From Candidatus Multivorans sp. (lineage in GTDB: Bacteria > Acidobacteriota > Thermoanaerobaculia > Multivoradales > Multivoraceae): a stretch of 64,000 nucleotides of DNA. Positions 9,330 to 44,333 of the stretch are shown in pieces (the stretch's first letter is position 1; each line of letters starts with the position of its first letter). Position numbers and translations under genes: made by a program. The notes under the pieces were generated by a model. It saw only the letters and a program-made list of their open reading frames with translations, was not told where the DNA came from and ran no database searches. The stretch spans positions 4,896,001 through 4,960,000 of the forward strand of contig OZ245033.1 in assembly GCA_965224025.1 (NCBI GenBank), given 5' to 3'.

Positions 9330-9330
9330 G

Positions 9331-14977: not shown

Positions 14978-15076
14978 TGGATCGTGGCGAGGCCGTCGAA
15001 CTGCCCATCCTGTCGGTGCCTGACGACGATCGTTGAGCGCAATGGGCCGCTGCTCTCCGAGCCGACAACGAGGAAC

Positions 15077-16910: not shown

Positions 16911-16959
16911 GCAGCGCCTTCCAGGCCTCGGTGAGGCCGGCCTGCGCGGCGTCATCGAA

Positions 16960-17975: not shown

Positions 17976-17978
17976 CGC

Positions 17979-18548
17979 TCAGAAGATCCCCATCATCGCG
18001 CGCCACTGTTCCAGGCTGCTCGGTCGGAGGTAGGCGTCCGACTGCAATTCACGGCCGATCGTCGAGAACGACTCCGGACCGTAGTCGTGCCCCGGGTAGA
18101 TTCCCACCTCCGGCGGCAGCGCCTTCAACCGCTCCAGGGAGCGGAACATGGCGACATCGCCGTCGCGAAACGCTTACACCCCGTCGGGCGGGCAACCCGC
18201 GATCTCGGCGCCGCGCTCGGCCTCAGCCTCGTGAATCAGCATCGGCAGATCGAACTCGGCGCGCAACTCGCGCACGCCGGGGATGTGCTGGCCCATGATC
18301 TCCCCGCCGATGTGATCCTGGTGGAAGTGCGTCGCCAGTACGCCCGTCACCTCGTAGCCCTGCTCTCCGGCGATCCTGACGACGCCGAGCGGCTCCCAGG
18401 CCGGGTCCACGACCCAGGCCTTGCGAGTGACTGAGTCCGCCAGGACGTAGACGAAGTTGGCCATCGGGCCGGCCTGGATCTGGACGAGCCGGGGTTCGGC
18501 GGCCGTGGCGGCGGGGTGTCGCGCGGCAAGCTGAGAAGTGTCGGTCAT
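17979..18548 (-). pseudogene. MBL hydrolase copy B with nonsense codon and in-frame internal deletion
   Basis: GCPPDGV*AFRDGDV|AMFRSLERLK...MMGIF*; TAA at 18174-18176; HTPGH segment missing. Confidence 0.88.
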
Positions 18549-18726
18549 GGCCTGCGGAACCTACCGCGACCGTCGCCGGCCGGCCAACGAGCCGCACCTC
18601 CGCGGCGCACGCCGCGGCCGCCAGGACCATCCAGACCGTAGCCCAGTTCCGCCTACATGCGGCCGTCCATGTCTGCGCAGCCCTGGATCGCCGAGTTCGC
18701 CGCCTCGTGCGCGCGCAGCGACGGGA

Positions 18727-21700
18727 CTACTCCTCTCTCTTCGGATCCGAGCGCCTTACGTCGCAGTCCTTTCCGCGTGCGGCAACCTTCGCGCAGAGGG
18801 CCGCCGCCACATGCCGATCGAGGAACGCGTCGGCAAGCAGAACGCGAATGAGACCGTCACTCTGCGACGCGTCGAACGCGAACTTGAGTTGTTCTTCACG
18901 AACGAGGTCCGACAGATCCACGGCCAGCCGTACCCGAATTCTGACGGCGTCGGCAACTGTCGGGAACGCGCCGAACTGCACGATGTAGCGGCGTTCCCCG
19001 CCGGTTCGATGAGTGGAATTCGTTGTTGCGAGGATGCTCTCCTTCCTCTCACGGTCCGGGCTCGAATACTCGGGTTTCAGCGCATGCAGCGTCCGAGACG
19101 CTTCCCGCGGCGCCGCGGCAATGTAGACCAAGCCGAAACGAGCCCCGTGCTCCGGAGGTCCCGCCGTCCGTTCGAACCGTTCCGCGACGACCTCCAGCCT
19201 CAGACTCCTCTCAAGCTCGAAACGCAGCCCCACCTGGGACCTGATCGGCTTCGTCCCCTCCAGACCGACTACAGCGAACGGCGCGAGGACGCCGCTCCAG
19301 CTCTCGAGTCCGTAGTGCAGGCGCAGGTCGGAGCGTTCCGGCACCCACGCCGCCTGGCCGACGTCACGATCGCGACTGCCACCGTAGCCAGCGCCCGGGA
19401 GCGGCCCCAGCGTCTGGTCTGACTGCCACAGAGCACTCCCGGCGGCCGACACGACGCCCCAGGACGGCGTAAGAGCCACCCCTAGTCCGAGGCCGTTCTC
19501 CCCCGCGCCCAGACGAACGGTCAACCCCGCGCCCCAGGCAGCGAACCCCTGCTCCTCGTGGGACGCCAGATAGCGGCCGCGGCCCTCCACTTCGACGCCC
19601 GACGCACTGTTGCTGTACCTCACGCGAGCGCCCAACTCCACTCCCAGACCGGTGGCTGAAGCACCGCCATCCAAGCGGCCCCCAACCTCGATGAGCGGAG
19701 ACAGACGGCCGTGCTCCGACAAGGACCAGTCGGCGCTGCCCTCGACCAGCACGCGGGCTCGATAGGCATCTGCCGACACCGCGGCGAGGCCTTCTGCTCC
19801 CGCGGTCTTCAGGCGAGTACCGAACACGTCGCCCTTGAGCGCGAGACCGTAGACGGATCCCGCGCGCAGCTCCCGGCGCATTCCGCCGGCAACGAGTTCG
19901 CGGGTCAGGTCCGCGCGCAGATCCTCATCCTGCGCGTCCGACAAGTGCATTTCGCCGACACCCGCGCCAAGAAGCGCCCACGCACTCAGACCTCGGCGGA
20001 GCGACCAGTGCGCGTATGGCAGCAGCGTTACGAGATCCGCCTCGACGACTCCGGCGCCGGAGAGCTCGCCCCGGTACTCGACGTCTCCATGACTCCGCGA
20101 CAACGCCAGCCCGAACACCGTGCCGCCCCGCCGTCGGTCGACGCCGAGATACACGGAACTCGCCCGGCCGTCGGTCTCGTAGGTCCGGCCCCGGAAGCTG
20201 CCCTGATCGCCCCGGCCCCAGAACGTCCAGGGCCGTTGCACGGCGCCGGACTCGGACCCCTCTCTCCGGTCGCCTCCGAAGTACACGTCGAACGAACTCC
20301 GGGACACCAGATCCCAGAACGGCGACAGTCGCTCTCCGTACATCCGCGAGCCAAAGCCGCCCGACGGGGAACCGCCGAACCCGCTCGAAGACGTACCCGG
20401 CCCTGCAGCGAAGCCGCCGCCGGGCAACCCGGACATCATGCCGATCGACGTGCCGGAACCCGGACCCGCAGACCCGCCCGGTCCGTAGGCCGGCGAGCCG
20501 GCCCCGCTCCAGACTCCCGCCCCGAAGGGACCACCGAGGGCGCCGCTCCCTCCGAAGCCCAACGCCGACGCCGGGCCGAACGCCGAAAGCCCGCCGAGAC
20601 CCCCGAAACCGGGGAGGCGCCGGCCGGCGGCGCCCCGACCCGCCCGCGAACCGAGCGGCAGCCGGTACCCGTACACGGTCGCACGCGATTGACCGCCGAA
20701 CCCACCGGTCTCAAAGCGACTGCCGATCGCGTCCACGGCGTTGGACGCCAGCATCCGGCCAAGGCCCGCCAACGCGAACTCCACCGCCTCGGCCCTTTCC
20801 TCCGGAGGGATCGCCACCGGCTCGGTCGGAACGCTCCGAGCCTGCTTGCCTGGACCCTGTGCATCCACATAAGAGACCGTGGCGCGCAGGCGCCGGCCCA
20901 CGTCCGCCGCCACCGGCACATAGCCGGGAGACGCCGCTGCCCCGATGTTCTCCCAGTTCGCGCCGGCCGACCGCTGCCACTGCCAAAACTCCTGGGCGAC
21001 GCTGCCGTCCGGATCGCTCAGCGTGGCCGTCAGATCGCCACCCACCTCCGCCGACAGCGACGACAGTTCCACCGAACCTGCTTCGTCCTCGTTCAGCACG
21101 GTGACGACGACAACAGCCGTCACGGCCAACCCCGCGCCGTCGTCTGCGCGTATGGTGAACTCGTACCGCGGCGGGGCGGACTCGTAGTCTTCGCCAGCGC
21201 CCTCGTAGGACAACGCTCCACCGTCCTCGATCGCGAAGAGCTTGCCTTCCGACTCGAGAAGCGAGTAGACGACCCGGTCCTGCCGGTTCGGATCGACGGC
21301 CGAGACCACACCGAGCCGCAACGGGCCTGAGACGTTCTCCGGCAGGTCGAACGCGTACTCCTCCCGATCGAACCGCGGCGCCTCGTTCAAGTACGCGGCG
21401 ATCGTGAACGGCGGCGAGCGGAGACTCGCGTTGCCCGCCGCATCGAACGCCGCGCCGCCCAAGACCTGCACCGACACCTTCCCGCGAAGATCCCGCAGCG
21501 GCGTGATCACCGCCGTGTAGTCGGCGTCCAGGCCGGACAAGCCGGACGGCTCGCCGTTCCGCACCTCGATGCCGCTCAGATCGAAGCCGGACACCGGCTC
21601 GCTGAACGTGATCGAGACCTCGAACGCCCCGTTCACCGGGAGCAAGGCGGCGGTGGCCACTGCGACCGCGGGCGCCGCCATGTCCACCATCGCCGTGACG

Positions 21701-24700
21701 GGAGGCGACTCGACGTTGCCGTTCCCCGCCAAGTCGGTCGCCATTTCGGCAATGACCTGCACCGACACGGCCCCCTCGTGGCCCGGGAACGGCGTGATCG
21801 TGACCGTGTACTCCGCACCGCTGCCCGCCAGGTCCGACGCCTCGGCATTCGTCACCTGGAGGCTTGCGAGGCCAAAGCCCACCACCGGCTCGCTGAAGGT
21901 GATCGAAACCGAGAAGGAGTCGTTCATGGGTTGCCCGGCATCAACCGACAACTCCACAGTCGGCACCACCAGATCGGCCGCAATCACGAAGCGATTCGAT
22001 GCCACGTTCCAGCCGTCCGAAGCATCCCGCGCGGCCGCGGCCAGCACCTGCACGGAAACTTCGCCCGCGACTCCTGACAACGGGATGATCCGCGCCGTGT
22101 AGTCGGTTCCGCCGCCGGCCAGGTCGGAGGCGGCGCCGCCCGAAACCTCCACGCCGTCGATGCCGAAGCCGGACACCGGCTCGCTGAACGCGATTGCCAC
22201 CTCAAAGGCGCCGGTCACAGGCGGCTCGGCGCCGCTGGCCACGACCACGTTCGGCCCGTCGTCGTTGTCATCGACCGTGATCTCCTCCCTGCCGAACTCG
22301 AAGCCACGCACCGTTGCCGTAACGACAATCGTCTCGATGCCTTCAACTCGTTCGTCGTCCACAGCCGAGATGATCACCTCCGTGGCCCCCGACAATGCGC
22401 CTGCCGGGATGACGATCGCGTCACCACTGAACGCGTAGTCCACGCCTCGTCTGGCGGAGCCTTCGAACACGAGCGTGACGGTCTCCTCGGTCACGAACAC
22501 GCCCTCCGTCGCCATCTCAACCCACACCCGTGCGGAAGTCGAGCCGGTCTCCGAGATTCGCGTCGGCGAGACGGTCAGAATGGGTTCGGGTTCGGGCTCG
22601 GGTTCGGGCTCGGGCTCGGGCTCGGGTTCGGGTTCGGGCTCGGGTTCAGGCTCGGGTTCGGGTTCGGGCTCGGGTTCAGGCTCGGGTTCGGGTTCGGGCT
22701 CGGGCTCAGGGTCTCCCCCCGTGCCGCCGTCGGTGATCGTCGTCGTCGCCGCCGCGGCGTCGCGCTCGGCCGTACCCGCGGCCGTGCTCGCCCCGGTCAG
22801 CGTCACGATCAGGGTCTCTCCCGGGTCCAGCACGCCGTCCGAGGTCGTCTGGATCGCGATCGTCCCGCTCGATTGGCCCGCCGCGATCGTCAGAGAGCCG
22901 ACCGGCGCGGTGTAGTCCGCGCCCGGGGTCGCCGTGCCGCCGACGGCGTAGCCGACCACCACGTCCGCCGTGCTCTCGCCGCCCGTCAACTCCACCGTGA
23001 AGCCCGCCGCGGAACCCTCGGAGACGGTCGCCGAGTCCGCCGTCACGGACGCCGTCAGCGTCTCGTCGTCAACAATCGTCGCCGTCGCCGTCGCGACGCC
23101 CACGGTCACCCCGTCCGGCAGGGTCGCGCCCGTGATCGTCACCGTGAAGGTCTCCTCCGCCTCCGCCAGATCGTCCTCCACCGTCGACACCGTCAGCGTC
23201 CCCGTCGTCTCGCCCGCCGAGATGGTGAGCGTCCCGGCCGTCACCGCCGTGAAGTCCGTACCCGAGGTCGCCGTGCCCGCCGCGGTGCTCCAGCCCAGCA
23301 CCGTGTCCGCCGCCGCGGCGCCCGACAGCTCGACCGCGAACTGGACGTCCTCGCCTTCCCCGGCGGTCGAGCCGGCGATCGACACCGTCTCCATGCCGCC
23401 GTCGGTGATCGTCGTCGTGGCCGCCGCGGCGTCGCGCTCGGCCGTACCCGCGGCCGTGCTCGCCCCGGTCAGCGTCACGATCAGGGTCTCTCCCGGGTCC
23501 AGCACGCCGTCCGAGGTCGTCTGGATCTCGATCGTCCCGCTCGATTGGCCCGCCGCGATCGTCAGAGAGCCGACCGGCGCGGTGTAGTCCGCGCCCGGGG
23601 TCGCCGTGCCGCCGACGGCGTAGCCGACCACCACGTCCGCCGTGCTCTCGCCGCCCGTCAACTCCACCGTGAAGCCCGCCGCGGAACCCTCGGAGACGGT
23701 CGCCGAGTCCGCCGTCACGGACGCCGTCAGCGTCTCGTCGTCAACAATCGTCGCCGTCGCCGTCGCGACGCCCACGGTCACCCCGTCCGGCAGGGTCGCG
23801 CCCGTGATCGTCACCGTGAAGGTCTCCTCCGCCTCCGCCAGATCGTCCTCCACCGTCGACACCGTCAGCGTCCCCGTCGTCTCGCCCGCCGAGATGGTGA
23901 GCGTCCCGGCCGTCACCGCCGTGAAGTCCGTACCCGAGGTCGCCGTGCCGGCCGCGGTGCTCCAGCCCAGCACCGTGTCCGCCGCCGCGGCGCCCGACAG
24001 CTCGACCGCGAACTGGACGTCCTCGCCTTCCCCGGCGGTCGAGCCGGCGATCGACACCGTCTCCATGCCGCCGTCGGTGATCGTCGTCGTGGCCGCCGCG
24101 GCGTCGCGCTCGGCCGTACCCGCGGCCGTGCTCGCCCCGGTCAGCGTCACGATCAGGGTCTCCCCCGGGTCCAGCACGCCGTCCGAGGTCGTCTGGATCT
24201 CGATCGTCCCGCTCGATTGGCCCGCCGCGATCGTCAGAGAGCCGACCGGCGCGGTGTAGTCCGCGCCCGGGGTCGCCGTGCCGCCGACGGCGTAGCCGAC
24301 CACCACGTCCGCCGTGCTCTCGCCGCCCGTCAACTCCACCGTGAAGCCCGCCGCGGAACCCTCGGAGACGGTCGCCGAGTCCGCCGTCACGGACGCCGTC
24401 AGCGTCTCGTCGTCAACAATCGTCGCCGTCGCCGTCGCGACGCCCACGGTCACCCCGTCCGGCAGGGTCGCGCCCGTGATCGTCACCGTGAAGGTCTCCT
24501 CCGCCTCCGCCAGATCGTCCTCCACCGTCGACACCGTCAGCGTCCCGGTGGGCTGGCCCGCCGAGATGGTGAGCGTCCCGGCCGTCACCGCCGTGAAGTC
24601 CGTACCCGAGGTCGCCGTGCCCGCCGCGGTGCTCCAGCCCAGCACCGTGTCCGCCGCCGCGGCGCCCGACAGCTCGACCGCGAACGACAGCTCCCCGCCT

Positions 24701-27700
24701 TCCTCCGCGCTCGCCGCCGCGACCGACACCGTCTCCGTCCCCGAGTCCGTGATCGTCGTCGTCGCCGCCGCGGCGTCGCGCTCGGCCGTACCCGCGGCCG
24801 TGCTCGCCCCGGTCAGCGTCACGATCAGGGTCTCCCCCGGGTCCAGCACGCCGTCCGAGGTCGTCTGGATCGCGATCGTCCCGCTCGATTGGCCCGCCGC
24901 GATCGTCAGAGAGCCGACCGGCGCGGTGTAGTCCGCGCCCGGGGTCGCCGTGCCGCCGACGGCGTAGCCGACCACCACGTCCGCCGTGCTCTCGCCGCCC
25001 GTCAACTCCACCGTGAAGCCCGCCGCGGAACCCTCGGAGACGGTCGCCGAGTCCGCCGTCACGGACGCCGTCAGCGTCTCGTCGTCAACAATCGTCGCCG
25101 TCGCCGTCGCGACGCCCACGGTCACCCCGTCCGGCAGGGTCGCGCCCGTGATCGTCACCGTGAAGGTCTCCTCCGCCTCCGCCAGATCGTCCTCCACCGT
25201 CGACACCGTCAGCGTCCCCGTCGTCTCGCCCGCCGAGATGGTGAGCGTCCCGGCCGTCACCGCCGTGAAGTCCGTACCCGAGGTCGCCGTGCCCGCCGCC
25301 GTCGTCCAGCCCAGCACCGTGTCCGACCCCGCCGCCCCCGTCAGCTCGACCGCGAACGACAGCTCCCCGCCTTCCTCCGCGCTCGCCGCCGCGACCGACA
25401 CCGTCTCCGTCCCCGAGTCCGTGATCGTCGTCGTCGCCGCCGCGGCGTCGCGCTCGGCCGTACCCGCGGCCGTGCTCGCCCCGGTCAGCGTCACGATCAG
25501 GGTCTCTCCCGGGTCCAGCACGCCGTCCGAGGTCGTCTGGATCTCGATCGTCCCGCTCGATTGGCCCGCCGCGATCGTCAGAGAGCCGACCGGCGCGGTG
25601 TAGTCCGCGCCCGGGGTCGCCGTGCCGCCGACGGCGTAGCCGACCACCACGTCCGCCGTGCTCTCGCCGCCCGTCAACTCCACCGTGAAGCCCGCCGCGG
25701 AACCCTCGGAGACGGTCGCCGAGTCCGCCGTCACGGACGCCGTCAGCGTCTCGTCGTCAACAATCGTCGCCGTCGCCGTCGCGACGCCCACGGTCACCCC
25801 GTCCGGCAGGGTCGCGCCCGTGATCGTCACCGTGAAGGTCTCCTCCGCCTCCGCCAGATCGTCCTCCACCGTCGACACCGTCAGCGTCCCCGTCGTCTCG
25901 CCCGCCGAGATGGTGAGCGTCCCGGCCGTCACCGCCGTGAAGTCCGTACCCGAGGTCGCCGTGCCGGCCGCGGTGCTCCAGCCCAGCACCGTGTCCGCCG
26001 CCGCGGCGCCCGACAGCTCGACCGCGAACTGGACGTCCTCGCCTTCCCCGGCGGTCGAGCCGGCGATCGACACCGTCTCCATGCCGCCGTCGGTGATCGT
26101 CGTCGTGGCCGCCGCGGCGTCGCGCTCGGCCGTACCCGCGGCCGTGCTCGCCCCGGTCAGCGTCACGATCAGGGTCTCCCCCGGGTCCAGCACGCCGTCC
26201 GAGGTCGTCTGGATCTCGATCGTCCCGCTCGATTGGCCCGCCGCGATCGTCAGAGAGCCGACCGGCGCGGTGTAGTCCGCGCCCGGGGTCGCCGTGCCGC
26301 CGACGGCGTAGCCGACCACCACGTCCGCCGTGCTCTCGCCGCCCGTCAACTCCACCGTGAAGCCCGCCGCGGAACCCTCGGAGACGGTCGCCGAGTCCGC
26401 CGTCACGGACGCCGTCAGCGTCTCGTCGTCAACAATCGTCGCCGTCGCCGTCGCGACGCCCACGGTCACCCCGTCCGGCAGGGTCGCGCCCGTGATCGTC
26501 ACCGTGAAGGTCTCCTCCGCCTCCGCCAGATCGTCCTCCACCGTCGACACCGTCAGCGTCCCCGTCGTCTCGCCCGCCGAGATGGTGAGCGTCCCGGCCG
26601 TCACCGCCGTGAAGTCCGTACCCGAGGTCGCCGTGCCCGCCGCGGTGCTCCAGCCCAGCACCGTGTCCGCCGCCGCGGCGCCCGACAGCTCGACCGCGAA
26701 CTGGACGTCCTCGCCTTCCCCGGCGGTCGAGCCGGCGATCGACACCGTCTCCATGCCGCCGTCGGTGATCGTCGTCGTGGCCGCCGCGGCGTCGCGCTCG
26801 GCCGTACCCGCGGCCGTGCTCGCCCCGGTCAGCGTCACGATCAGGGTCTCTCCCGGGTCCAGCACGCCGTCCGAGGTCGTCTGGATCGCGATCGTCCCGC
26901 TCGATTGGCCCGCCGCGATCGTCAGAGAGCCGACCGGCGCGGTGTAGTCCGCGCCCGGGGTCGCCGTGCCGCCGACGGCGTAGCCGACCACCACGTCCGC
27001 CGTGCTCTCGCCGCCCGTCAACTCCACCGTGAAGCCCGCCGCGGAACCCTCGGAGACGGTCGCCGAGTCCGCCGTCACGGACGCCGTCAGCGTCTCGTCG
27101 TCAACAATCGTCGCCGTCGCCGTCGCGACGCCCACGGTCACCCCGTCCGGCAGGGTCGCGCCCGTGATCGTCACCGTGAAGGTCTCCTCCGCCTCCGCCA
27201 GATCGTCCTCCACCGTCGACACCGTCAGCGTCCCCGTCGTCTCGCCCGCCGAGATGGTGAGCGTCCCGGCCGTCACCGCCGTGAAGTCCGTACCCGAGGT
27301 CGCCGTGCCCGCCGCGGTGCTCCAGCCCAGCACCGTGTCCGCCGCCGCGGCGCCCGACAGCTCGACCGCGAACTGGACGTCCTCGCCTTCCCCGGCGGTC
27401 GAGCCGGCGATCGACACCGTCTCCATGCCGCCGTCGGTGATCGTCGTCGTGGCCGCCGCGGCGTCGCGCTCGGCCGTACCCGCGGCCGTGCTCGCCCCGG
27501 TCAGCGTCACGATCAGGGTCTCTCCCGGGTCCAGCACGCCGTCCGAGGTCGTCTGGATCGCGATCGTCCCGCTCGATTGGCCCGCCGCGATCGTCAGAGA
27601 GCCGACCGGCGCGGTGTAGTCCGCGCCCGGGGTCGCCGTGCCGCCGACGGCGTAGCCGACCACCACGTCCGCCGTGCTCTCGCCGCCCGTCAACTCCACC

Positions 27701-30700
27701 GTGAAGCCCGCCGCGGAACCCTCGGAGACGGTCGCCGAGTCCGCCGTCACGGACGCCGTCAGCGTCTCGTCGTCAACAATCGTCGCCGTCGCCGTCGCGA
27801 CGCCCACGGTCACCCCGTCCGGCAGGGTCGCGCCCGTGATCGTCACCGTGAAGGTCTCCTCCGCCTCCGCCAGATCGTCCTCCACCGTCGACACCGTCAG
27901 CGTCCCCGTCGTCTCGCCCGCCGAGATGGTGAGCGTCCCGGCCGTCACCGCCGTGAAGTCCGTACCCGAGGTCGCCGTGCCCGCCGCGGTGCTCCAGCCC
28001 AGCACCGTGTCCGCCGCCGCGGCGCCCGACAGCTCGACCGCGAACTGGACGTCCTCGCCTTCCCCGGCGGTCGAGCCGGCGATCGACACCGTCTCCATGC
28101 CGCCGTCGGTGATCGTCGTCGTGGCCGCCGCGGCGTCGCGCTCGGCCGTACCCGCGGCCGTGCTCGCCCCGGTCAGCGTCACGATCAGGGTCTCTCCCGG
28201 GTCCAGCACGCCGTCCGAGGTCGTCTGGATCTCGATCGTCCCGCTCGATTGGCCCGCCGCGATCGTCAGAGAGCCGACCGGCGCGGTGTAGTCCGCGCCC
28301 GGGGTCGCCGTGCCGCCGACGGCGTAGCCGACCACCACGTCCGCCGTGCTCTCGCCGCCCGTCAACTCCACCGTGAAGCCCGCCGCGGAACCCTCGGAGA
28401 CGGTCGCCGAGTCCGCCGTCACGGACGCCGTCAGCGTCTCGTCGTCAACAATCGTCGCCGTCGCCGTCGCGACGCCCACGGTCACCCCGTCCGGCAGGGT
28501 CGCGCCCGTGATCGTCACCGTGAAGGTCTCCTCCGCCTCCGCCAGATCGTCCTCCACCGTCGACACCGTCAGCGTCCCCGTCGTCTCGCCCGCCGAGATG
28601 GTGAGCGTCCCGGCCGTCACCGCCGTGAAGTCCGTACCCGAGGTCGCCGTGCCCGCCGCGGTGCTCCAGCCCAGCACCGTGTCCGCCGCCGCGGCGCCCG
28701 ACAGCTCGACCGCGAACTGGACGTCCTCGCCTTCCCCGGCGGTCGAGCCGGCGATCGACACCGTCTCCATGCCGCCGTCGGTGATCGTCGTCGTGGCCGC
28801 CGCGGCGTCGCGCTCGGCCGTACCCGCGGCCGTGCTCGCCCCGGTCAGCGTCACGATCAGGGTCTCCCCCGGGTCCAGCACGCCGTCCGAGGTCGTCTGG
28901 ATCTCGATCGTCCCGCTCGATTGGCCCGCCGCGATCGTCAGAGAGCCGACCGGCGCGGTGTAGTCCGCGCCCGGGGTCGCCGTGCCGCCGACGGCGTAGC
29001 CGACCACCACGTCCGCCGTGCTCTCGCCGCCCGTCAACTCCACCGTGAAGCCCGCCGCGGAACCCTCGGAGACGGTCGCCGAGTCCGCCGTCACGGACGC
29101 CGTCAGCGTCTCGTCGTCAACAATCGTCGCCGTCGCCGTCGCGACGCCCACGGTCACCCCGTCCGGCAGGGTCGCGCCCGTGATCGTCACCGTGAAGGTC
29201 TCCTCCGCCTCCGCCAGATCGTCCTCCACCGTCGACACCGTCAGCGTCCCCGTCGTCTCGCCCGCCGAGATGGTGAGCGTCCCGGCCGTCACCGCCGTGA
29301 AGTCCGTACCCGAGGTCGCCGTGCCCGCCGCGGTGCTCCAGCCCAGCACCGTGTCCGCCGCCGCGGCGCCCGACAGCTCGACCGCGAACGACAGCTCCCC
29401 GCCTTCCTCCGCGCTCGCCGCCGCGACCGACACCGTCTCCGTCCCCGAGTCCGTGATCGTCGTCGTCGCCGCCGCGGCGTCGCGCTCGGCCGTACCCGCG
29501 GCCGTGCTCGCCCCGGTCAGCGTCACGATCAGGGTCTCCCCCGGGTCCAGCACGCCGTCCGAGGTCGTCTGGATCTCGATCGTCCCGCTCGATTGGCCCG
29601 CCGCGATCGTCAGAGAGCCGACCGGCGCGGTGTAGTCCGCGCCCGGGGTCGCCGTGCCGCCGACGGCGTAGCCGACCACCACGTCCGCCGTGCTCTCGCC
29701 GCCCGTCAACTCCACCGTGAAGCCCGCCGCGGAACCCTCGGAGACGGTCGCCGAGTCCGCCGTCACGGACGCCGTCAGCGTCTCGTCGTCAACAATCGTC
29801 GCCGTCGCCGTCGCGACGCCCACGGTCACCCCGTCCGGCAGGGTCGCGCCCGTGATCGTCACCGTGAAGGTCTCCTCCGCCTCCGCCAGATCGTCCTCCA
29901 CCGTCGACACCGTCAGCGTCCCGGTGGGCTGGCCCGCCGAGATGGTGAGCGTCCCGGCCGTCACCGCCGTGAAGTCCGTACCCGAGGTCGCCGTGCCCGC
30001 CGCGGTGCTCCAGCCCAGCACCGTGTCCGACCCCGCCGCCCCCGTCAGCTCGACCGCGAACGACAGCTCCCCGCCTTCCTCCGCGCTCGCCGCCGCGACC
30101 GACACCGTCTCCGTCCCCGAGTCCGTGATCGTCGTCGTCGCCGCCGCGGCGTCGCGCTCGGCCGTACCCGCGGCCGTGCTCGCCCCGGTCAGCGTCACGA
30201 TCAGGGTCTCTCCCGGGTCCAGCACGCCGTCCGAGGTCGTCTGGATCTCGATCGTCCCGCTCGATTGGCCCGCCGCGATCGTCAGAGAGCCGACCGGCGC
30301 GGTGTAGTCCGCGCCCGGGGTCGCCGTGCCGCCGACGGCGTAGCCGACCACCACGTCCGCCGTGCTCTCGCCGCCCGTCAACTCCACCGTGAAGCCCGCC
30401 GCGGAACCCTCGGAGACGGTCGCCGAGTCCGCCGTCACGGACGCCGTCAGCGTCTCGTCGTCAACAATCGTCGCCGTCGCCGTCGCGACGCCCACGGTCA
30501 CCCCGTCCGGCAGGGTCGCGCCCGTGATCGTCACCGTGAAGGTCTCCTCCGCCTCCGCCAGATCGTCCTCCACCGTCGACACCGTCAGCGTCCCCGTCGT
30601 CTCGCCCGCCGAGATGGTGAGCGTCCCGGCCGTCACCGCCGTGAAGTCCGTACCCGAGGTCGCCGTGCCCGCCGCCGTCGTCCAGCCCAGCACCGTGTCC

Positions 30701-33700: not shown

Positions 33701-36700
33701 TAGCCGACCACCACGTCCGCCGTGCTCTCGCCGCCCGTCAACTCCACCGTGAAGCCCGCCGCGGAACCCTCGGAGACGGTCGCCGAGTCCGCCGTCACGG
33801 ACGCCGTCAGCGTCTCGTCGTCAACAATCGTCGCCGTCGCCGTCGCGACGCCCACGGTCACCCCGTCCGGCAGGGTCGCGCCCGTGATCGTCACCGTGAA
33901 GGTCTCCTCCGCCTCCGCCAGATCGTCCTCCACCGTCGACACCGTCAGCGTCCCCGTCGTCTCGCCCGCCGAGATGGTGAGCGTCCCGGCCGTCACCGCC
34001 GTGAAGTCCGTACCCGAGGTCGCCGTGCCCGCCGCGGTGCTCCAGCCCAGCACCGTGTCCGCCGCCGCGGCGCCCGACAGCTCGACCGCGAACGACAGCT
34101 CCCCGCCTTCCTCCGCGCTCGCCGCCGCGACCGACACCGTCTCCGTCCCCGAGTCCGTGATCGTCGTCGTCGCCGCCGCGGCGTCGCGCTCGGCCGTACC
34201 CGCGGCCGTGCTCGCCCCGGTCAGCGTCACGATCAGGGTCTCCCCCGGGTCCAGCACGCCGTCCGAGGTCGTCTGGATCTCGATCGTCCCGCTCGATTGG
34301 CCCGCCGCGATCGTCAGAGAGCCGACCGGCGCGGTGTAGTCCGCGCCCGGGGTCGCCGTGCCGCCGACGGCGTAGCCGACCACCACGTCCGCCGTGCTCT
34401 CGCCGCCCGTCAACTCCACCGTGAAGCCCGCCGCGGAACCCTCGGAGACGGTCGCCGAGTCCGCCGTCACGGACGCCGTCAGCGTCTCGTCGTCAACAAT
34501 CGTCGCCGTCGCCGTCGCGACGCCCACGGTCACCCCGTCCGGCAGGGTCGCGCCCGTGATCGTCACCGTGAAGGTCTCCTCCGCCTCCGCCAGATCGTCC
34601 TCCACCGTCGACACCGTCAGCGTCCCCGTCGTCTCGCCCGCCGAGATGGTGAGCGTCCCGGCCGTCACCGCCGTGAAGTCCGTACCCGAGGTCGCCGTGC
34701 CCGCCGCCGTCGTCCAGCCCAGCACCGTGTCCGACCCCGCCGCCCCCGTCAGCTCGACCGCGAACGACAGCTCCCCGCCTTCCTCCGCGCTCGCCGCCGC
34801 GACCGACACCGTCTCCGTCCCCGAGTCCGTGATCGTCGTCGTCGCCGCCGCGGCGTCGCGCTCGGCCGTACCCGCGGCCGTGCTCGCCCCGGTCAGCGTC
34901 ACGATCAGGGTCTCTCCCGGGTCCAGCACGCCGTCCGAGGTCGTCTGGATCTCGATCGTCCCGCTCGATTGGCCCGCCGCGATCGTCAGAGAGCCGACCG
35001 GCGCGGTGTAGTCCGCGCCCGGGGTCGCCGTGCCGCCGACGGCGTAGCCGACCACCACGTCCGCCGTGCTCTCGCCGCCCGTCAACTCCACCGTGAAGCC
35101 CGCCGCGGAACCCTCGGAGACGGTCGCCGAGTCCGCCGTCACGGACGCCGTCAGCGTCTCGTCGTCAACAATCGTCGCCGTCGCCGTCGCGACGCCCACG
35201 GTCACCCCGTCCGGCAGGGTCGCGCCCGTGATCGTCACCGTGAAGGTCTCCTCCGCCTCCGCCAGATCGTCCTCCACCGTCGACACCGTCAGCGTCCCCG
35301 TCGTCTCGCCCGCCGAGATGGTGAGCGTCCCGGCCGTCACCGCCGTGAAGTCCGTACCCGAGGTCGCCGTGCCCGCCGCCGTCGTCCAGCCCAGCACCGT
35401 GTCCGACCCCGCCGCCCCCGTCAGCTCGACCGCGAACTGGACGTCCTCGCCTTCCCCGGCGGTCGAGCCGGCGATCGACACCGTCTCCATGCCGCCGTCG
35501 GTGATCGTCGTCGTGGCCGCCGCGGCGTCGCGCTCGGCCGTACCCGCGGCCGTGCTCGCCCCGGTCAGCGTCACGATCAGGGTCTCTCCCGGGTCCAGCA
35601 CGCCGTCCGAGGTCGTCTGGATCGCGATCGTCCCGCTCGATTGGCCCGCCGCGATCGTCAGAGAGCCGACCGGCGCGGTGTAGTCCGCGCCCGGGGTCGC
35701 CGTGCCGCCGACGGCGTAGCCGACCACCACGTCCGCCGTGCTCTCGCCGCCCGTCAACTCCACCGTGAAGCCCGCCGCGGAACCCTCGGAGACGGTCGCC
35801 GAGTCCGCCGTCACGGACGCCGTCAGCGTCTCGTCGTCAACAATCGTCGCCGTCGCCGTCGCGACGCCCACGGTCACCCCGTCCGGCAGGGTCGCGCCCG
35901 TGATCGTCACCGTGAAGGTCTCCTCCGCCTCCGCCAGATCGTCCTCCACCGTCGACACCGTCAGCGTCCCGGTGGGCTGGCCCGCCGGAATCGTCAACGC
36001 CCCGCTCGCCGCCGTGTAGTCCTCGCCGGCTATGGCCGTATTGTCCACCGTCTCGTAATCCACCGTCACCGGAACCGCCACCGCCCCCGACAGCGTCGCC
36101 ACAAAGCTCAACGCCCCGCCTTCCGTACCCTTGGCCGGCGCCACCGACACCGTCACCTTGCTGGAGTCCTTGATCGTCGTCGTCGCGGATTCCTCCGTCA
36201 CGTCCACCTGCCGGTTCGCGGTGGTCGCCACGCCAAGCGTCACCGTTACCGTCTCGTCCGGCTCCACCACCGTGTCGGGCTGCGTCTGGATCACGATCAA
36301 CCCCGCCGCCTGCCCAGCCGGAATCGTCAGCGTCCCGCTCGCCGCCGTATAGTCGCTCCCCGCCTCCGCCGTCCCGCTCAGCGCATACGGAACCACCACG
36401 TCCGCGGTGCTCGCGCCCGCAACGGTCACGGTGAAGGTCGCCGCGGCGCCCTCGCTGGTTTCCGCCTCCGTCGTGACGGCCACCGCCAGTCTGTCGTCAT
36501 CTCTGATGGTCCCCGTCGCAGCCGCAGTCCTCAGTGTCGCGTGCTGCTCCTTGAGCAGCGCCACCGTGAAAGCCTCCGGCCCTTCGTTCAACTCGTCGTC
36601 CCGGATCGATACGGCTATCTCGGTCGATTCCTCGCCCGGCTCGAATGTCAGCGTGGCACTCGCGGGCTCGTAGTCCTCGCCAGCCGTCGCCGAGCCGTCG

Positions 36701-39700
36701 GAGGTCGCGTAGTCCACCGTCACTCTGCGCCCGCTCGCCGGAGAAAGGGACACGGCAAACGACAGCGACCCCTCGTCTTCGCCGGCTTCTCCGCCTTGTC
36801 GAGCCGCAGCCGTGATCGCCAGTTCCGGCAGGTCGTCGTTGTCTTCGATCAATCCGATGGCAGCGGGGTCGGCGAGCGTCGCGTTGACCGCCGAGGACAA
36901 GGTGACCGAAAACCGCTCCTCGTTCTCATCCAGCGCGTCGTCGCCTATCAGCACCCGGATGTACCGTTCCGTTTCCTCAGTTCCGAAGGTCAATGTGCCG
37001 GTCGCTTCCGTGTAGTCCCCGCCAGCCTTCGCCGTCCCGTCCTCCGTGGCGTATTCCACCGAGACCTCCCCTTGCTTCGCGCCTTCCAGCGTCACGCTGA
37101 ACACGATCTCGCCGCTGCCCTCATAGGCCGTCTCGTCGCCGATGGAAAGCGTGGGAAGGGCGCTGAAGACGACTGACACCGCCACGTCGCTCGATTCCAC
37201 CGCGCCGTCGGTCGCGTCGGCGGTGCTGACGAGTTCGCCGGCGGTCACGTCCGCCGCGGTGACCGCGTAGCTGGCCTGGCACCGGATCGCTTCCGCTCCC
37301 GGGTCGAGGGCCTCCGAGCCGCACACGAAGTCGCCGGCCCTGTCGTCACGCACAGTGATGGGCGCCGCACTCCGAACGGTTCCGGTATTGGACACCCAAT
37401 AGACGAACTCGAGTACCTGCCCGGCTCGACCGAAGCTCTCCGGTGAAGACCTGCGGAGCTCGAACTCCACTCGCCGGTCGTCATCGGTGACGGTCACCAC
37501 CGCGGTGGCGGGGTCGCCGGCCAAATAGAGGGGGCGGCCGCCGGCATCCTGGGACTCGAACCCCGTCAACCTGAACTCGTAGGTTCTCGTGGGCTCCAAC
37601 GCCTCGTCATCGGGCGTCGGCACCTCCAGATCGACCGTGTCGGAGTCCGCGGAGAAGGTCCCCAGCACGAGATCGACGAAGGTCCCATCGAGATAGCGGC
37701 CCAAGGTCGCAAGCAGTTCCTCCGTCTTGTCGCCGGTGCGGGTCAACTCGAGGGCGATGGCCTCTCCTTCTTCCACCGAATCCTCCCGCGCCGCAACGGT
37801 CACGACGGTGTCCGGCGCGTCGTCGTCCCGGATGGCGACGGTGGCGGTGTTGGGGTACTCCGGAACACCTTCGTATGCGTTGTAGGCGTCCTCGACCGCT
37901 GCGATTGACAGATCGTCTCCACCCAGGACTTGCACCGTGACCGCGCCGTCCTCCTCGTAGACGTCGTCGCCGGTGGTCGGAATCGTCACGGTGATCTCGG
38001 CCTGGCCGGGCTGGAACCGTGCCGCCGTTTCGGGCAAGCCGGACACGAAGTCTCCCCGATCGGTCACGCGGAGCCGCACGTCCGTGGCTTCGACTCCGAG
38101 ATTCTCCGCGTTCCACAACCGCGTCAGCGTGAACCGGGCGGGCGCACCCTCGGTGACTTCGGCTGCCGCGGCCGCGACAGTGATCGTGGGAAACCGGTTC
38201 AGCACCCGGACCGTGGCCGAGGCGGGGCTGCCAAGGACATAGCTCGGCCGCCAGCAGGGATCCCCGCATTCGGCGGGAGGAATATCAATATACGCCGTGC
38301 CTCCAGGCGGACCAACGTAGTTGTACTTCGCCGACAGGAAGACGCCAGGCGTCGTGCGACTTTTCTCACCTTTCCAAATCCCGAAAAGAACAGTGAGATA
38401 GAAGTTGTTACTTGTCTCGTCGTATTCTCTATTGTAATGTGAATGGTAGGGATGATTGAAAACCGTTCGATACTTCATTCGAACTTTCAGGTCGTGGACC
38501 ACATCGCCTGCGCGGTAATAGGTCCAACCGATAGCATTGCCCTCAACTATCTCATCCGCGACCGCTTCGACCGTCACCTCCGCAATGTCGTCATCCTTCA
38601 CCAGCACGGTGGCGCTGGCGTTGCTGCCGATTCGATACCCGCCGTTCGGATTCCGTTCGAGCGCCGCCACGAACTCGGCGTCGCCCTCATTGACTTCGTC
38701 CGCTTCCGTCGTCAACGTCAGCGTGGCCGCCGAGGCGCCGGCCTCGAACAGAACCGGCACGTGGTCCCACCGCATCCAGCGACGAGTCTGGTCCGTCGCG
38801 AACTTGCTGTACCCTTCGTGCGTCGCGTGGATGTCCACGTGGGCACGCACCGCTGCCCGATTGTCACCCTCGCGGGTCAAGGTGAAGACCACGTCGTCAC
38901 CTTCAGTCACCCGGGCAACGTCGCGGACGATGGACATCACAGGCCCCGTACCATCGTTGTCCACGACGATAACGAAAGCGATCGCGGAGGTCGGATCGCT
39001 GTCGAGCGCGTATCCAGGGCCCTCGACTATCGCCGCCGCCACGGGGGCATCGGGCTGCTGGAGATCATTGTCGTTCGTCGGCACGCTCAAGGTCGTCGTG
39101 GAGGCGCCTGCTTCGAAGGTCGCCGTCGTCGGCGGGGAACCCGCGATGAAGGGACCCCCTTCGGTCACACCAACGTTCACGGTCAGCGCGCCCCGGGACG
39201 ACTGACTCACAAAGCCGCCTGCCCGCGTCTCTCGACGCAGGGTGAAGACAACGTCCCGCCCTTCCGTCACGTATGCCCGATCCCTCGAGATCGTCACGAA
39301 TTGCAGGTTGTCGTTGTCGGTGACCGCTACCGTGGCGGAGGCGGCGGCGCCGATCACGTAGCCGGCGCCCGCGGAGATTCTCGCGGCCACCGAGCCATCG
39401 GGTTCGTCGAGGTCATCGTCGTCGGTTCGCACGTTCAGGGATGCAGTGAGAGCGCCCGGCGCGAACATCGCCGTGGCGGGCGCCGCGTCCGAGAAGAAGC
39501 TGCCGTCGCGAGTCACGCTCACGTCGACGTGCAACTCGGCCGAAACGTCTCCCACCCGCGTCAGAGTGAACGCCGCGGCCTGGCCCTCGACGCGGGTGGC
39601 ATGATCAGCGGCGATGGTCACCGTGGGGAGGTCGTCGTCCCTGATCGTGACCGTGCCCGTGCCGCCCGCGAGGAGCCCCGCGTTCCGAGAGCCGCTCAGC

Positions 39701-41913
39701 CTCACCGTGAAGGTCTCGTCGAGTTCGCCGCTCTGGTCGTTCGCTGGCCTCACGTCGAATGTCCGGCTGGTGTCGCCGGGGCTGAAGGTCAGCGTGCCAC
39801 TCGCCGCCGCGTAGTCGGAGGGCGCCACCGCCGTGGCGTCCTCGGTGGTGTAGACCACCGTCACCGGCCGCGCGGTGCTGTGAAGAGCACTGGCGAATTC
39901 CAGGGCCACCTCGACCTCGATCCCCTGGTCGTTCTCGCGTCCCAACACGTCTCGAACGCGAAGATTCGGGAAGGGATCGTTGTCGGTGATTCGCACCGTG
40001 GCGCTGCCGGGTTCGCCGATCTCATGGCCCGCGACATCGATCGGATCGAGCGTCACCACAACCGAACCGCCGTCTTCGTCGACACGGTCATCGTCGGTGT
40101 TCAACGTCAGCGTCGCTGTACTGTTCGCTGTGGCGAAGGTCACCGTCGCGGGCGGATCCGCGCTCAAGAACGCACCCTGCCGGGTCACGGTCACGCCCAG
40201 GGTGAGTTCTTGCAGAAAGACCTGGCGGCCGGTCCGCTTCAACACGAATACGATGCGCTGTCCTTCCGATCGAACGGCATGCGACGTCTCGATGGTGATC
40301 GCCGAAAGGTCATTGTCGATGATCGGCACCTCGACGAGGCGATCCGGGGAGCCGCCCAGATAAGACGGGTGGGGACGTAGCAGCACAAGAATGGAGTCGT
40401 CCTGAGTGAAGACGTCGTCATCGTTCGTGGCGATCAACTCGGTGATCTCGGTCACACCCGGCTCGAAGGTCAGCACCCGGTCTTCCTGGTCGTACAGGCC
40501 CTGTATGCTCCACGCCCAATACACGACTAGCCGGATCGAGCCGCCGCCGGTCCGGCTAAAGGTGATGGCCGCGCTCTCACCCTCGTCGACCGAGGTCGGC
40601 GGAGTGACGGTCACGAGCGACAGATCGTTGTCGTGGACTGCGAGCTGGGCAGTTCTGGCGGCGGCATCGACCGTGTAGTCGGAACCGACCGCCAAGTTGG
40701 AGCCGTCCGTGATCGTCACCATGACGCTGCCGTCGGCTTTGACCAAGTCATCGTCGACCGTCGGGACAATCAGGTCGGTGGTGTACGCGTCTCTCGGGAA
40801 GTTCGCCATCACCGGCGCCGGACTGGCCAGGAACCCACCGGTCCCGGCCACGTTCAACATCACGGTCAGCGGCGGCGGTCCCACCGACGCGTCGCAGAAG
40901 TCCCTGTAGCACCGCGTCAAGGTGAAGACGGCATCGTTTCCTTCCAACACATACGGCAGGCCGCCAGCCGTGGCCGGCCGTGCGCGGTCCGACGCCGCAA
41001 CGGATATCCGGGCGGTGCCGAAGAGTTCGAGTTCCTGGTCGCGGATTTCCGTCCTGGCCGTTGCCGGGTCGCCGGCTTCATAGCGCTCGTGATCGATCCC
41101 CTCGATACTCGCCGTGATCGACCCGTGGGGCGTGATGAAGCGGTTGCGCGCCGTGGCGACACGGACCTCCGCCTTCGCCGCGCCCTCGCGGAACGTCGCC
41201 GTCTCCGGGGGTTGAATGGGAGCGGAGAAATCCCCCACGAGGGTCACGTCCAGATCGACGGTGAATGCGCTCAGGGTCGATGTCCTGCCAGTGCGCGTCA
41301 GATCGAAGTAGGCGCTCGTGCCCTCCGATATCGATGAACTCCGGGCTTCGATGGTGATCGTCGAGACGTCGTCGTCGATGATCGGCACATCGAGCTGGGG
41401 GCCGCCGATGATTCTGAACACGACCGAGTTGCCTTCGTCGTACTCGTTGTCTTCCTCGGTTGGCACGGGCACCTCGAGGGTGCTGGCGTCCGCGGCGAAG
41501 TCCCTCGGGAAAGACACACCGTCCGAGCCCCGGTGACGCTCGTAGTGCTCAATCCACACTCTGCGGGAACCACTGACGTCGCCGCTGCGCGTCAGTGTGA
41601 AGGTCACGGTGTCCCCTTCCTCCACCGGCGAAGGAGTTGCCGTGATCGTGATGGCCTGCGCCCCGGCGACCGCCGGCGCCAAGAGCGCGACCCCGGCGAT
41701 CAGCAGCGCCGCCGGGAGCGCAACCCGGCCTCCTTCGGCCGGCGGCGGAAGAAGGGGAACGGCTGACGGTCTGTGCGATGTCAGGGTCCACGATTCAGGC
41801 CCATCGAAAGGATGGGAAATCTTCACTGACGTGATACGAAGAACACCCTTGTGGTGTATCCTCCGACAGCGCTCCGAATCGCACCCGGCAGCGCGGGTAC
41901 AATCGCTCTTCAT
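18727..41913 (-). CDS. Giant (7,728 aa) Calx-beta-repeat adhesin with Ig/cadherin domains, autotransporter-like beta-barrel and C-terminal SPOR domain
   Basis: Signal peptide [17 protein letters not shown]|QA; many Calx-beta motifs (YxTxDGTAxAGxDY...DDxxxExxEtF); DUF11-like domain ~37150-37460; three [10 protein letters not shown] Ig domains; cadherin [18 protein letters not shown]...DYE; barrel from WTFWGRG (~20230); YIVQFGAF...[14 protein letters not shown] at the end; exact start uncertain. Confidence 0.92.
22582..22710 (-). repeat. Coding hexanucleotide microsatellite encoding a (PE)21-P linker
   Basis: gg(t/c)tc(g/a) hexamer repeats, 129 nt, including about three 30-bp higher-order units (22621-22710). 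Confidence 0.95.
22722..35986 (-). repeat. Intragenic tandem array, 672-bp (224-aa, two Calx-beta domains) unit, about 19.7 copies
   Basis: Shadow ORFs recur exactly every 672 bp from 22970 to 35738; units near-identical at DNA level. Confidence 0.97.
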
Positions 41914-41958
41914 CTATGTTGATGTTGCCACTAATCTCTTGGGACGCACTGCTCCTTA

Positions 41959-42044
41959 TTACGCGAATGACGGGGAATTACGTGGACAACACATCTTCTT
42001 CGCCGACGGAAGGAAATCGACGCAATTCGCGTATCGCGTATCGC
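41959..42044. promoter_or_regulatory. Conserved ~85-bp upstream element, copy 1 (5' of giant adhesin)
   Basis: Imperfect direct repeat of 43226-43310; non-coding; regulatory role inferred. Confidence 0.7.
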
Positions 42045-42097
42045 CAGCGGCCCCGTCGCGTATGATCGGCGTAGTGCTCAGCGATCCGGACAAGGAG

Positions 42098-43075
42098 TCA
42101 CGACGGGGCGGACTCGCGCACGACGCCATGATAGCGGCGGCTTACGGGCACCACGTGACCGCCGAACAGGCGCAGACGCATCCTGCCGCCTTGCCTTGAC
42201 ATCCCCTCGATGTGGCGGTGGGCGACCCAGTAGGAGCGGTGTACCTGCATCCCGTAGTCACCCAGCTCGGCCACCGCGTCCGCGAAGCGCATCAGAATGA
42301 TGGCGTGACCGGCGACGGTGTACACGTCGATGTAGTGATCATCCACCTTCAGGAAAACCAGGTCGCGGCCCAGATCGGATGGCAGGCGGTCGAGAAACGG
42401 CGCCTGCGCGGTTTCGGTCGCGTCTGGCGCCGCTTGCGTAGAGGGGCGCTCGAGCACGGAGAGGCCCAGGCAAGCGGCGTCACCTGTCTCAGCGGCAGTC
42501 CCGTCCGCAACGAGGCCACCGTTCCCAACGTCCGTGCCGTCCGCAACGCCGGCGTCGGCAGCCGGCGTCGGCGGCCCGGGCTCCGCAGCATTCCCAACCT
42601 GCTGAAAGACGATGTAGTGGCTGAACCAGCTACACAAGATCGCCATGATCGTCACGGTCAGGAATATCTGCAGCAACGATGCGGAGGCCGCGTTGTCGGG
42701 ACGAAACAGCGAGTCGACGGTGTACACGACTGCCGTGCCGAGAAAGCCCATGAGCAGCACCGACGCCACTATCGCCGGTACCGTCTCGATGAGCGATCTG
42801 AAGCGCATCATGTAGAGCACAACGGCCGACATGGAGTGACAGAACGGCCAAGCGCCGGCAGCACAAAGGGCCCCATACGCCAGCCGGCGCAGCGGTCCGA
42901 GGGCCTCGAACGCACCCAGCGGATCGAAGACAGCCATCGCCACCACAAGCAGCGATACGTTGATGATCCCCACCGCGATGGTCCGGGCTCTCAGCCATTC
43001 ACGATATGCGAATCGCATACCGCGAGCGCGAACCGCACTACCCCCTTGCCTTGACGACAAAGGCGTTTCGCCCAC
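42098..43075 (-). CDS. Membrane-anchored LytTR-family DNA-binding protein (4 TM + LytTR domain)
   Basis: GGAGGAG RBS before GTG; four hydrophobic helices; FLDRLPSDLGRDLVFLKVDDHYIDVYT...MQVHRSYWV...VPVSRRY. Confidence 0.9.
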   Translation of the reverse strand: MGETPLSSRQGGSAVRARGMRFAYREWLRARTIAVGIINVSLLVVAMAVFDPLGAFEALGPLRRLAYGALCAAGAWPFCHSMSAVVLYMMRFRSLIETVPAIVASVLLMGFLGTAVVYTVDSLFRPDNAASASLLQIFLTVTIMAILCSWFSHYIVFQQVGNAAEPGPPTPAADAGVADGTDVGNGGLVADGTAAETGDAACLGLSVLERPSTQAAPDATETAQAPFLDRLPSDLGRDLVFLKVDDHYIDVYTVAGHAIILMRFADAVAELGDYGMQVHRSYWVAHRHIEGMSRQGGRMRLRLFGGHVVPVSRRYHGVVRESAPS

Positions 43076-43225
43076 GTCTCTCCTCCCCTGTCACCTTGCG
43101 TCAGCCAGTCGTCATCCGACCAAAGCTGGACATCGGGTCGAAGGTCGCTTCCGACTGGACCGGGGCGTGCGTATGCAACCCCTCGACTCTGATGCTGCCA
43201 CCATCGCCCGGGGTTTGCTGCACCT

Positions 43226-43310
43226 TTACGTGAATGACGGAGAAGTACGTGGACAGCACATTTTCTTCGCCGACGGAAGACGTAGTCGCAATTCGCGTAT
43301 CGTGTATCGC
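43226..43310. promoter_or_regulatory. Conserved ~85-bp upstream element, copy 2 (5' of LytTR gene)
   Basis: Imperfect direct repeat of 41959-42044, 150 bp upstream of the LytTR start. Confidence 0.7.
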
Positions 43311-43500
43311 AAGAAGCCCAGTTGCGCATGATCGGCGACGCACTTCCCAAGATCGTCCTCCCCCACCCATCAGTGTAAGCACGAGCCGGAATCTAGCCCG
43401 ATCTTCTCCAGGGGTCCCACTCCGACAAGGTTTCTTGACCAGCCATGTGTCGTGGTGCAGCGCATCTGTGGCCACCCGAGGCGAGTGCTAGCCTCGCCCC

Positions 43501-44264
43501 ATGACCTCCCACGACGTCCGCCGCATTTCGATCTCTCCGGACGCACTGCTCTGATCACCGGCGGCAGCCGCGGACTGGGCCGTGAAATGTCGCTTGCCTT
43601 CGCCGCCGGCGCCGACGTCGTCGTCGCCAGCCGGAAAATCGACTCCTGCCGCGAGGTGGTGGCGGAGATCGAGACGATGGGCCGCCAGGGGCTCGCCCAC
43701 GCCTGCCATGCCGGTCACTGGGATGAGGTCGATAGGCTCATCAACGCCGTCTACGAACGGTTCGGCAAGGTCGACGTGCTGGTCAACAACGCCGGCATGT
43801 CGCCGCTCTACCCCAGCCTGTCCGAGGTCGGCGAGGCGTTGTTCGACAAGGTGATCGGAGTGAACCTGAAGGGACCGTTCCGGCTCGCGGCGGTGATCGG
43901 GGAGCGCATGGCCGACGGGGACGGCGGCAGCATCATCAACGTGACGAGCACGGCCGCGATCCACCCCAGCGCCAACGCCGAACCCTACGGCGCGGCCAAG
44001 GCCGGACTGAACTCGCTGACCGAATCGCTGGCCCACGCCTACGGTCCGAAGGTCCGCGTCAACGCGATCATGCCCGGGCCCTTCCTGACCGACATCTCGA
44101 AGGCCTGGGACATGGAGGCGTTCAACAGGCGGGCGAAGACCTCGATCGCCCTGGGTCGCGGCGGCGAACCGGACGAGATCGTCGGCGCCGCGCTCTACCT
44201 GGCTTCCGACGCCTCCAGCTACACGACCGGCGCCGTACTGCGAATCGACGGCGGCAGCCGCCGA
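43501..44264 (+). pseudogene. SDR1 copy B, frameshifted after codon 9 and stop codon lost
   Basis: ATG 43501 (MTSHDVRRI) is out of frame with FDLSGRTALITGGSRGLG; one Ala codon missing (FAAGAD vs FAAAGAD); ends DGGSR-CGA where copy A has a stop. Confidence 0.8.
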
Positions 44265-44333
44265 GGGCGCGCCCTCGGCTACCTGGACCGAGGGCGACCG
44301 AGCCGCGCCCCGACCGACGCCTCAAGCCTCCAG

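Follow-up and report, generated by a model that had tools for sequence, protein, structure and literature searches.

Gene content of the locus

The window analysed here is a 64,000-nucleotide stretch of a Candidatus Multivorans genome (contig OZ245033.1, positions 4,896,001 to 4,960,000) that carries, within a single insert, the gene for a giant surface protein and the gene for a transmembrane (TM) LytTR regulator, P0002, each preceded by a copy of the same DNA element (Table 1). Acidobacteriota is also the phylum named for 7 of 40 cluster members of a neighbouring gene. We were interested in where this element comes from and in what it may do. The surface protein has matches to Calx-beta, DUF7507, Big_12 and cadherin domains and contains 20 repeat units at a spacing of 224 amino acids, and from its Calx-beta, immunoglobulin-like and cadherin domains we infer a probable adhesive function. 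An autotransporter-like barrel is predicted from language-model features only (28 of 30 Atlas matches are PF03797 clusters, best score 0.96; no direct Pfam match), and a SPOR domain follows it at the C-terminus (window 18727-19000). A SPOR domain behind the barrel is unusual for an autotransporter.

P0002 carries a C-terminal LytTR domain (PF04397, E 9e-13, 48.8 bits against a cut-off of 22.6) behind N-terminal helices, and the domain search gave no match to a receiver domain, the architecture of a TM-LytTR one-component regulator. The initial annotation had described a LytTR protein with four TM segments, and the AlphaFold model indeed has four N-terminal helices; hydropathy gave three segments above cut-off. 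The TM domain has no match in Pfam or NCBIfam and an Atlas search returned unnamed clusters only, while a fold search gave no match at E ≤ 0.001 and a sequence search of the PDB found, besides a helical design, a single LytTR domain (E 0.004). The HY and PxSR motifs kept in 99 of 108 family open reading frames (ORFs) are also present in P0002, as is the family HRS motif; by position rather than by alignment, HY, HRS and SR can be equated with H169, N201 and R233 of AgrA as given in the available portion of PMC12482169. Among the 93 other rows compared, the nearest relatives of P0002 are spirochaete proteins (46%; quick tree, support 97), and the gene was presumably gained horizontally. The genome holds exactly two LytTR-domain genes, the second encoding a receiver-LytTR response regulator at C1:4976186 that is BtsR/LytR-like, with scores below the curated cut-offs.

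Extent and copy number of the duplicated element

Upstream of the two genes the initial annotation had reported a repeat of ∼85 bp, and its counts were reproduced: 5 mismatches in the first 54 nt and 1 in the last 24 nt, the two conserved parts being separated by a spacer that reads GAAATCGA in one copy and ACGTAGT in the other. The 12-mer that it had noted closer to each gene starts at 41920 and 43190, that is 39 and 36 bp gene-ward of the repeats. The duplication is therefore real, its reported size is not, as the repeat extends over ∼150 bp at 82% identity, with 121 of 148 aligned bases identical between 41920-42071 and 43190-43337 (blastn E 1e-29).

Searching the genome with blastn and nhmmer yielded four copies, the two in the window and two outside it that had been missed. 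Copy 1 pairs with two of the others at 84% identity over 123-146 nt and with the third at 82% (blastn), and the only two exact matches to the 12-mer in the 5.14 Mb genome are those in the window. Three copies lie ahead of surface-protein loci and one ahead of the regulator, and each of the four faces a gene in the same way. The element thus reaches the 80% identity across 50 nt, ahead of non-paralogous genes, by which putative mobile promoters are recognised. It was found in none of 60 relatives. A 21-nt match at 43531 lies within the SDR coding region and was taken as chance.

The element probably derives from the 5′ end of a lost TM-LytTR gene

When the four copies were used as a profile against the 155 TM-LytTR family loci that were fetched, TM-LytTR 5′ ends matched at E < 0.05 in seven of them, always on the opposite strand. 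The spirochaete locus L042 is 84% identical over 51 nt (E 7.6e-9). The resemblance extends to the reading frame, since from its GTG copy 1 reads VDNTSSSPTE and, after a frame break, QFAYR and RMIGVVL, aligning codon for codon with VDKTTSSPAQE...MQFTYRELLRPRLIG of L042. In the reciprocal direction, the top five genome matches to a profile of 13 family 5′ ends are the four copies and the 5′ end of P0002 itself, and the four copies are still at the top after removal of L042. The element is thus, with little room for doubt, homologous to the 5′ ends of intact TM-LytTR genes on the opposite strand, which identifies it as the probable control region and beginning of a paralogue that has been lost and that pointed away from the genes now downstream. 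The L042 genome offers an independent parallel: another array of boxes there is joined to a stub ending after YRELLRPP, cut at nearly the same position, and lies ahead of a duplicated luxR-type gene. That the stub arose by simple inversion of P0002 was rejected, since this gene has a 5′ end of its own that differs from it.

This derivation also changes how the 85 bp are to be understood. Part of their supposed regulatory character is supported, namely the predicted boxes described below; about half of the stretch appears to be the relic 5′ end of a TM-LytTR gene, so that the length of the repeat would reflect duplication and not binding sites alone.

Table 1. Features of the insert and of the two outside loci (window positions unless marked C1 or L002)
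Feature	Position	Strand	Remarks
Insert between metallo-beta-lactamase-like gene and SDR gene	18586..43479	.	approximate, ∼25 kb
Surface protein, 7728 aa	18727..41913	-	start codon tentative; domain matches in text
Element copy 1	41920..42085	.	control region and probable relic 5′ end of TM-LytTR paralogue
Predicted -10 hexamer CAACAT	41922..41927	-	faces adhesin; core of 12-mer
Three predicted LytTR boxes	41958..42008	+	starts 41958, 41977, 41997; 19 and 20 bp apart; scores 11.8, 7.5, 7.9
Probable relic N-terminus of lost TM-LytTR gene	41982..42085	+	GTG at 41982; VDNTSSSPTE, then QFAYR, RMIGVVL in another frame
TM-LytTR regulator P0002, intact	42098..43075	-	four predicted helices, disordered linker, LytTR domain
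Element copy 2	43190..43337	.	
Predicted -10 hexamer CAGCAT	43192..43197	-	faces LytTR gene
Three predicted LytTR boxes	43225..43275	+	starts 43225, 43244, 43264; scores 10.7, 6.1, 7.9
Second probable relic N-terminus	43249..43337	+	GTG at 43249, VDSTFSSPTE; broken frame
Outside copies of element	C1:2561178-2561314; C1:3223491-3223628		exact 12-mer missing in both
Low-GC insert between guaB and secA	L002:5685-15139 (C1:3223684-3233138)		small secreted ORF, then FN3/cadherin/subtilase gene split by one in-frame TAG

Predicted boxes and promoter layout

Of the 155 family loci, 90 (L010-L099) were analysed, the other 65 being metagenome loci with mostly LytTR-domain-only matches; five of the 90 had no regulator call and four no upstream gene, leaving 81. 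In 73 of these 81 the neighbouring gene is head-to-head with the regulator. The neighbours cluster as DUF2141 proteins (38/81, Pfam run on two), cupins (12/81, one run) and spirochaete Calx-beta proteins (5/81, two run), and the gene behind DUF2141 belongs to the RPE65 family in all six cases tested. In 64 dereplicated upstream regions, pairs of wTTCGCGAAw-type boxes 21 bp apart occur 17 times against 0.2 in shuffles; these pairs come mostly from one alphaproteobacterial clade and so are not independent. In that clade the layout is rigid, as 20 of 20 DUF2141 promoters have RTGAC at a fixed offset after the proximal box and 18 of 20 have a CAnnnY-type hexamer 16-17 bp further on.

In each copy of the element the control region has the same type of box: three wTTCGCGAAw-type boxes are predicted at steps of 19-20 bp, together with a hexamer resembling a -10 and directed toward the downstream gene, CA(A/G)CAT lying at the hexamer position of the relatives. 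Recurring boxes had been proposed at 41959, 41978, 41999 and 42026; the first three fall into the 19-20 bp register and, judged by their sequence, resemble the direct-repeat motif upstream of the same regulator family in other genomes, and the fourth corresponds to the Phe-Ala-Tyr codons of the gene relic. Steps of 19 bp are also present in the array of L042. The predicted -10 facing the adhesin is not part of a canonical sigma-70 site, and the regulator's copy has no clear -35. The outside copies have TAGCCT at the hexamer position, in ungapped alignment with the -10 of a canonical-looking TTGACC-18-TATTCT site at C1:2149320. No box in the 5′ region belonging to P0002 itself reaches a score of 6, and the only strong boxes of this gene are therefore those of the imported copy. 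A genome-wide search for further regulon members with the loose box matrix was unspecific.

A probable LytTR-responsive promoter or a silent remnant

Taking these observations together, we read the element as the copied control region of a head-to-head TM-LytTR pair with a broken stub attached, which would probably (we put this at roughly 55%) act as a LytTR-responsive promoter through which P0002 controls its own gene, the adhesin and two further surface-protein loci. P0002 would bind the tandem boxes as a membrane-anchored dimer, recognizing them although another paralogue brought them, and would activate a weak promoter, giving positive feedback on its own gene together with co-expression of the adhesin; activation is suggested by analogy with other LytTR systems, in which the repeats lie just upstream of the -35. 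Its four helices may sense a lipophilic compound in the membrane, a signal suggested by the short loops and by the commonest family neighbours, which are RPE65-type and cupin dioxygenase-like genes. More speculatively, and we advance this as a tentative idea, the locus may represent a regulon in the making, in which a membrane LytTR sensor, gained by horizontal transfer and unique in the sample of its phylum, would have brought its own gene and three unrelated surface-protein loci under its control through copies of a single tagged promoter cassette. The display of adhesin and protease would thereby be tied to a lipophilic host cue, and the wTTCGCGAAw box with its fixed promoter geometry would serve as the binding code of a TM-LytTR family that is large and so far undescribed.

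A number of points weigh against this reading. With regard to origin, the 13-locus profile was partly picked from the matches of the four-copy profile, and when all 85 regions are used for the profile, copy 2 is missed and the other three are matched at E 0.12-0.57 only. Furthermore, the boxes arrived with a paralogue nearer to L042, whereas P0002 groups with L011/L021 (quick tree), and apart from L042 extra control-region copies were not found in other family genomes (searches including 11 genome slots). With regard to the promoter, the 12-mer reads TTGCCA on the plus strand and may instead be the -35 of the lost gene. A model built from the 20 DUF2141 promoters does favor our reading, placing the two window copies first and second among 10.3 million positions and the outside copies at rank 43, but these ranks require 19-bp spacing and -10 offsets of 26-31, both widened with knowledge of the window values; strict spacing drops them to 2906, 3680 and 18247. 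The window spacing is 19 bp as against 21 bp in the best-defined clade, RTGAC is kept in none of the copies, and three of them rank lower once a -35 term is included. The general box matrix is also a loose one; its seed was chosen after the sequences had been viewed, and the window triples are 2 of 32 genome-wide, with the outside copies not among them. Finally, both outside targets are damaged, one being cut by insertion sequence (IS) elements and the other interrupted by an in-frame TAG.

Much of this is shared by the main rival explanation, which we consider possible, if doubtful: the control region and stub were simply carried along through duplications and insertions of surface-protein cassettes and are bound by nothing, the -10 being at most a weak unregulated promoter. 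In its favor, the reading frames are broken in all four copies, the original partner gene is lost, spacing and RTGAC have departed from the model with correspondingly poor strict ranks, and the outside copies begin with fragments of an IS4-type transposase and of a repeat and precede damaged genes. However, conservation among the copies is uneven and centered on the boxes, with 45 of 54 invariant columns in the box region against 17 of 39 in the gene-side flank and 19 of 34 in the other flank (permutation p 0.005, a test that rests on about three independent lineages). In addition, the 12-mer is conserved at 11 of 12 positions and the adjoining spacer at 14 of 24, all four copies face a gene in one orientation, and an intact regulator of the family resides in the same insert.

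If the boxes are live, P0002 need not be the protein that reads them, as the only other LytTR-domain protein of the genome, the BtsR/LytR-like response regulator, or an unrelated factor could do so. This we regard as unlikely, since the boxes derive from control regions of the TM-LytTR family and P0002 keeps the HY, HRS and SR motifs of that family. The initial annotation had itself named two ways in which the element might be something else. One was scatter across the genome irrespective of LytTR or adhesin genes, as for a miniature inverted-repeat transposable element (MITE) or repetitive extragenic palindrome (REP), and a non-autonomous mobile repeat of this kind with an outward promoter would account for four dispersed copies, for the 476 bp shared at 98% identity by the outside pair and for the position of one of these inside a sulfatase ORF. 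The element is not scattered, however, there being only four copies and none in the 60 relatives; ends common to all four were not found, the left end of the outside copies lies in the middle of a transposase gene and is no terminus, and gene homology accounts for the sequence, which together make this explanation very improbable. The other, a structured RNA leader, or likewise a leader peptide, we dismiss as the least credible of all, for despite one inverted repeat (41960-41979 with 42014-42033) and a purine-rich stretch before the GTG, folding z-scores range from -1.25 to +0.71 for 10 of 10 sequences, no Rfam match in the window stretch falls below E 2.7 and the outside copies have none, and the GTG frames run for 27, 80, 67 and 12 codons with differing tails.

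Relation to known systems

Membrane-anchored LytTR proteins, LytTR repeats with autoregulation and the reuse of promoters are all already known. The first of these, from Alphaproteobacteria, are described as transmembrane transcription regulators (PMC10269533, citing Nikolskaya and Galperin 2002), and like P0002 they combine TM helices and LytTR in one polypeptide with no receiver; P0002 differs in coming from Acidobacteriota and in having a TM domain without a Pfam or NCBIfam match, and the available part of PMC10269533 gives no binding site, divergent target or regulon for the alphaproteobacterial proteins.

For the HdrRM/BrsRM systems, the portion of PMC6193735 at hand describes direct repeats ∼21 bp apart, 4-11 bp upstream of the -35, with an extended -10 (in the HdrRM type, 9-bp repeats with an 11-13 bp spacer just upstream of their own promoter), as well as positive autoregulation and further targets with the same repeats. 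The layout of the 20 DUF2141 promoters agrees with these LytTR-activated promoters, as far as that excerpt covers them. In contrast, the spacing in the window is 19-20 bp and the boxes of the regulator's own gene are imported. HdrRM and BrsRM are moreover described there as a soluble regulator with a separate inhibitory membrane protein in an operon, whereas P0002 is a single gene, flanked by the adhesin and SDR genes with no separate membrane-inhibitor operon, and is not of the HdrRM type since its sensor and DNA-binding domain are fused.

Putative mobile promoters are defined as stretches of 50 nt or more that precede unrelated genes of one genome and share 80% identity or more (PMC3575422). 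The element has this identity and length, its promoter role being predicted; unlike them, the reused DNA is traceable to the 5′ end of a regulator gene, with a candidate regulator adjoining. Transmembrane regulators of adhesins of the ToxR/PsaE type, named in the accessible text of PMC10269533, are similar in that a membrane-bound regulator, here a proposed one, acts on a surface adhesin. P0002 differs from these in having a LytTR domain and short loops only. Regulators of the ToxR/PsaE type have other DNA-binding domains and a periplasmic partner.

The initial annotation knew of no description of the LytTR-adhesin pairing, and in the literature searched (subscription journals and supplements lay outside its scope) the box, the DUF2141 link and the stub-tagged promoter are apparently undescribed, no paper on a link between LytTR and DUF2141 having been found. 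The analysis thus offers a candidate binding site and promoter layout for a widespread, uncharacterised membrane LytTR family, and a rare example of a reused promoter whose donor gene can still be read as a stub, which makes it possible to follow how a new regulon arose. Should the copies be dead, they are an ordinary duplication scar in one genome.

Distribution of the insert and setting of the outside copies

In 7 of 7 congeners the flanking genes are the same, with the insert that carries the adhesin and LytTR genes absent from between them. Both junctions of the insert are bridged at host depth by public contigs of one sample, which may be the source sample and so is not independent. An excision joint of the LytTR gene via the two direct copies was not among the joints listed for that sample's contigs, and contigs drop rare variants. 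The regulator was found in none of 41 congeners and in none of 400 further genomes from the phylum, the latter search using a stricter first look; the adhesin has domain-level matches only, in 7 of the 41, and Calx-beta partners occur at 5 of 81 family loci. A conserved LytTR-adhesin module is therefore not supported, and the arrangement is lineage-specific.

The host SDR/aminotransferase region is doubled at ∼89-90% identity (window 9350-17175 versus 17872-18585 plus 43480-46200), and its left copy retains an empty insertion site. In a public contig the adhesin's Pro-Glu repeat is 12 bases longer at window 22585, which points either to variation in its length or to mis-assembly. Elsewhere in the window, a HipA-type gene (58504-59772) lies in a stretch without alignment to the congeners fetched.

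The gene that each outside copy faces is a small secreted ORF, and after it come surface proteins with FN3 or FN3/cadherin/subtilase domains. Of 11 congeners, 9 lack the cargo at C1:3223385 between guaB and secA, and the remaining two have different inserts there. A 30-bp end of the outside copies was considered as an IS terminus and rejected, being internal to the IS4-type transposase. A leader of 55-62 bp is common to the outside copies and the C1:2149320 site (L254:5321-6655, C1:2149320 onward), where it stands behind the TTGACC-18-TATTCT promoter and precedes a diphthamide-synthase-like gene fused to AraC.

TM-LytTR loci in other genomes

Many of the host taxa of the family loci we take to be sponge symbionts. 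At L036, L038, L045, L079 and 34 further loci a conserved divergent cassette of TM-LytTR, DUF2141 and RPE65-family dioxygenase genes has a rigid promoter, the hexamers of which would also fit two overlapping promoters of opposite direction. In L042 the duplicated luxR-type gene (3295-4870 and 8481-10852) is 99.7% identical over 900 nt and the two control regions are only 76-78% alike, one having an intact TM-LytTR gene and six boxes and the other the stub. Tandem arrays of three or four TM-LytTR paralogues are present in spirochaetes and gammaproteobacteria (L015, L024, L031, L032, L034, L035, L044, L047 and L057).

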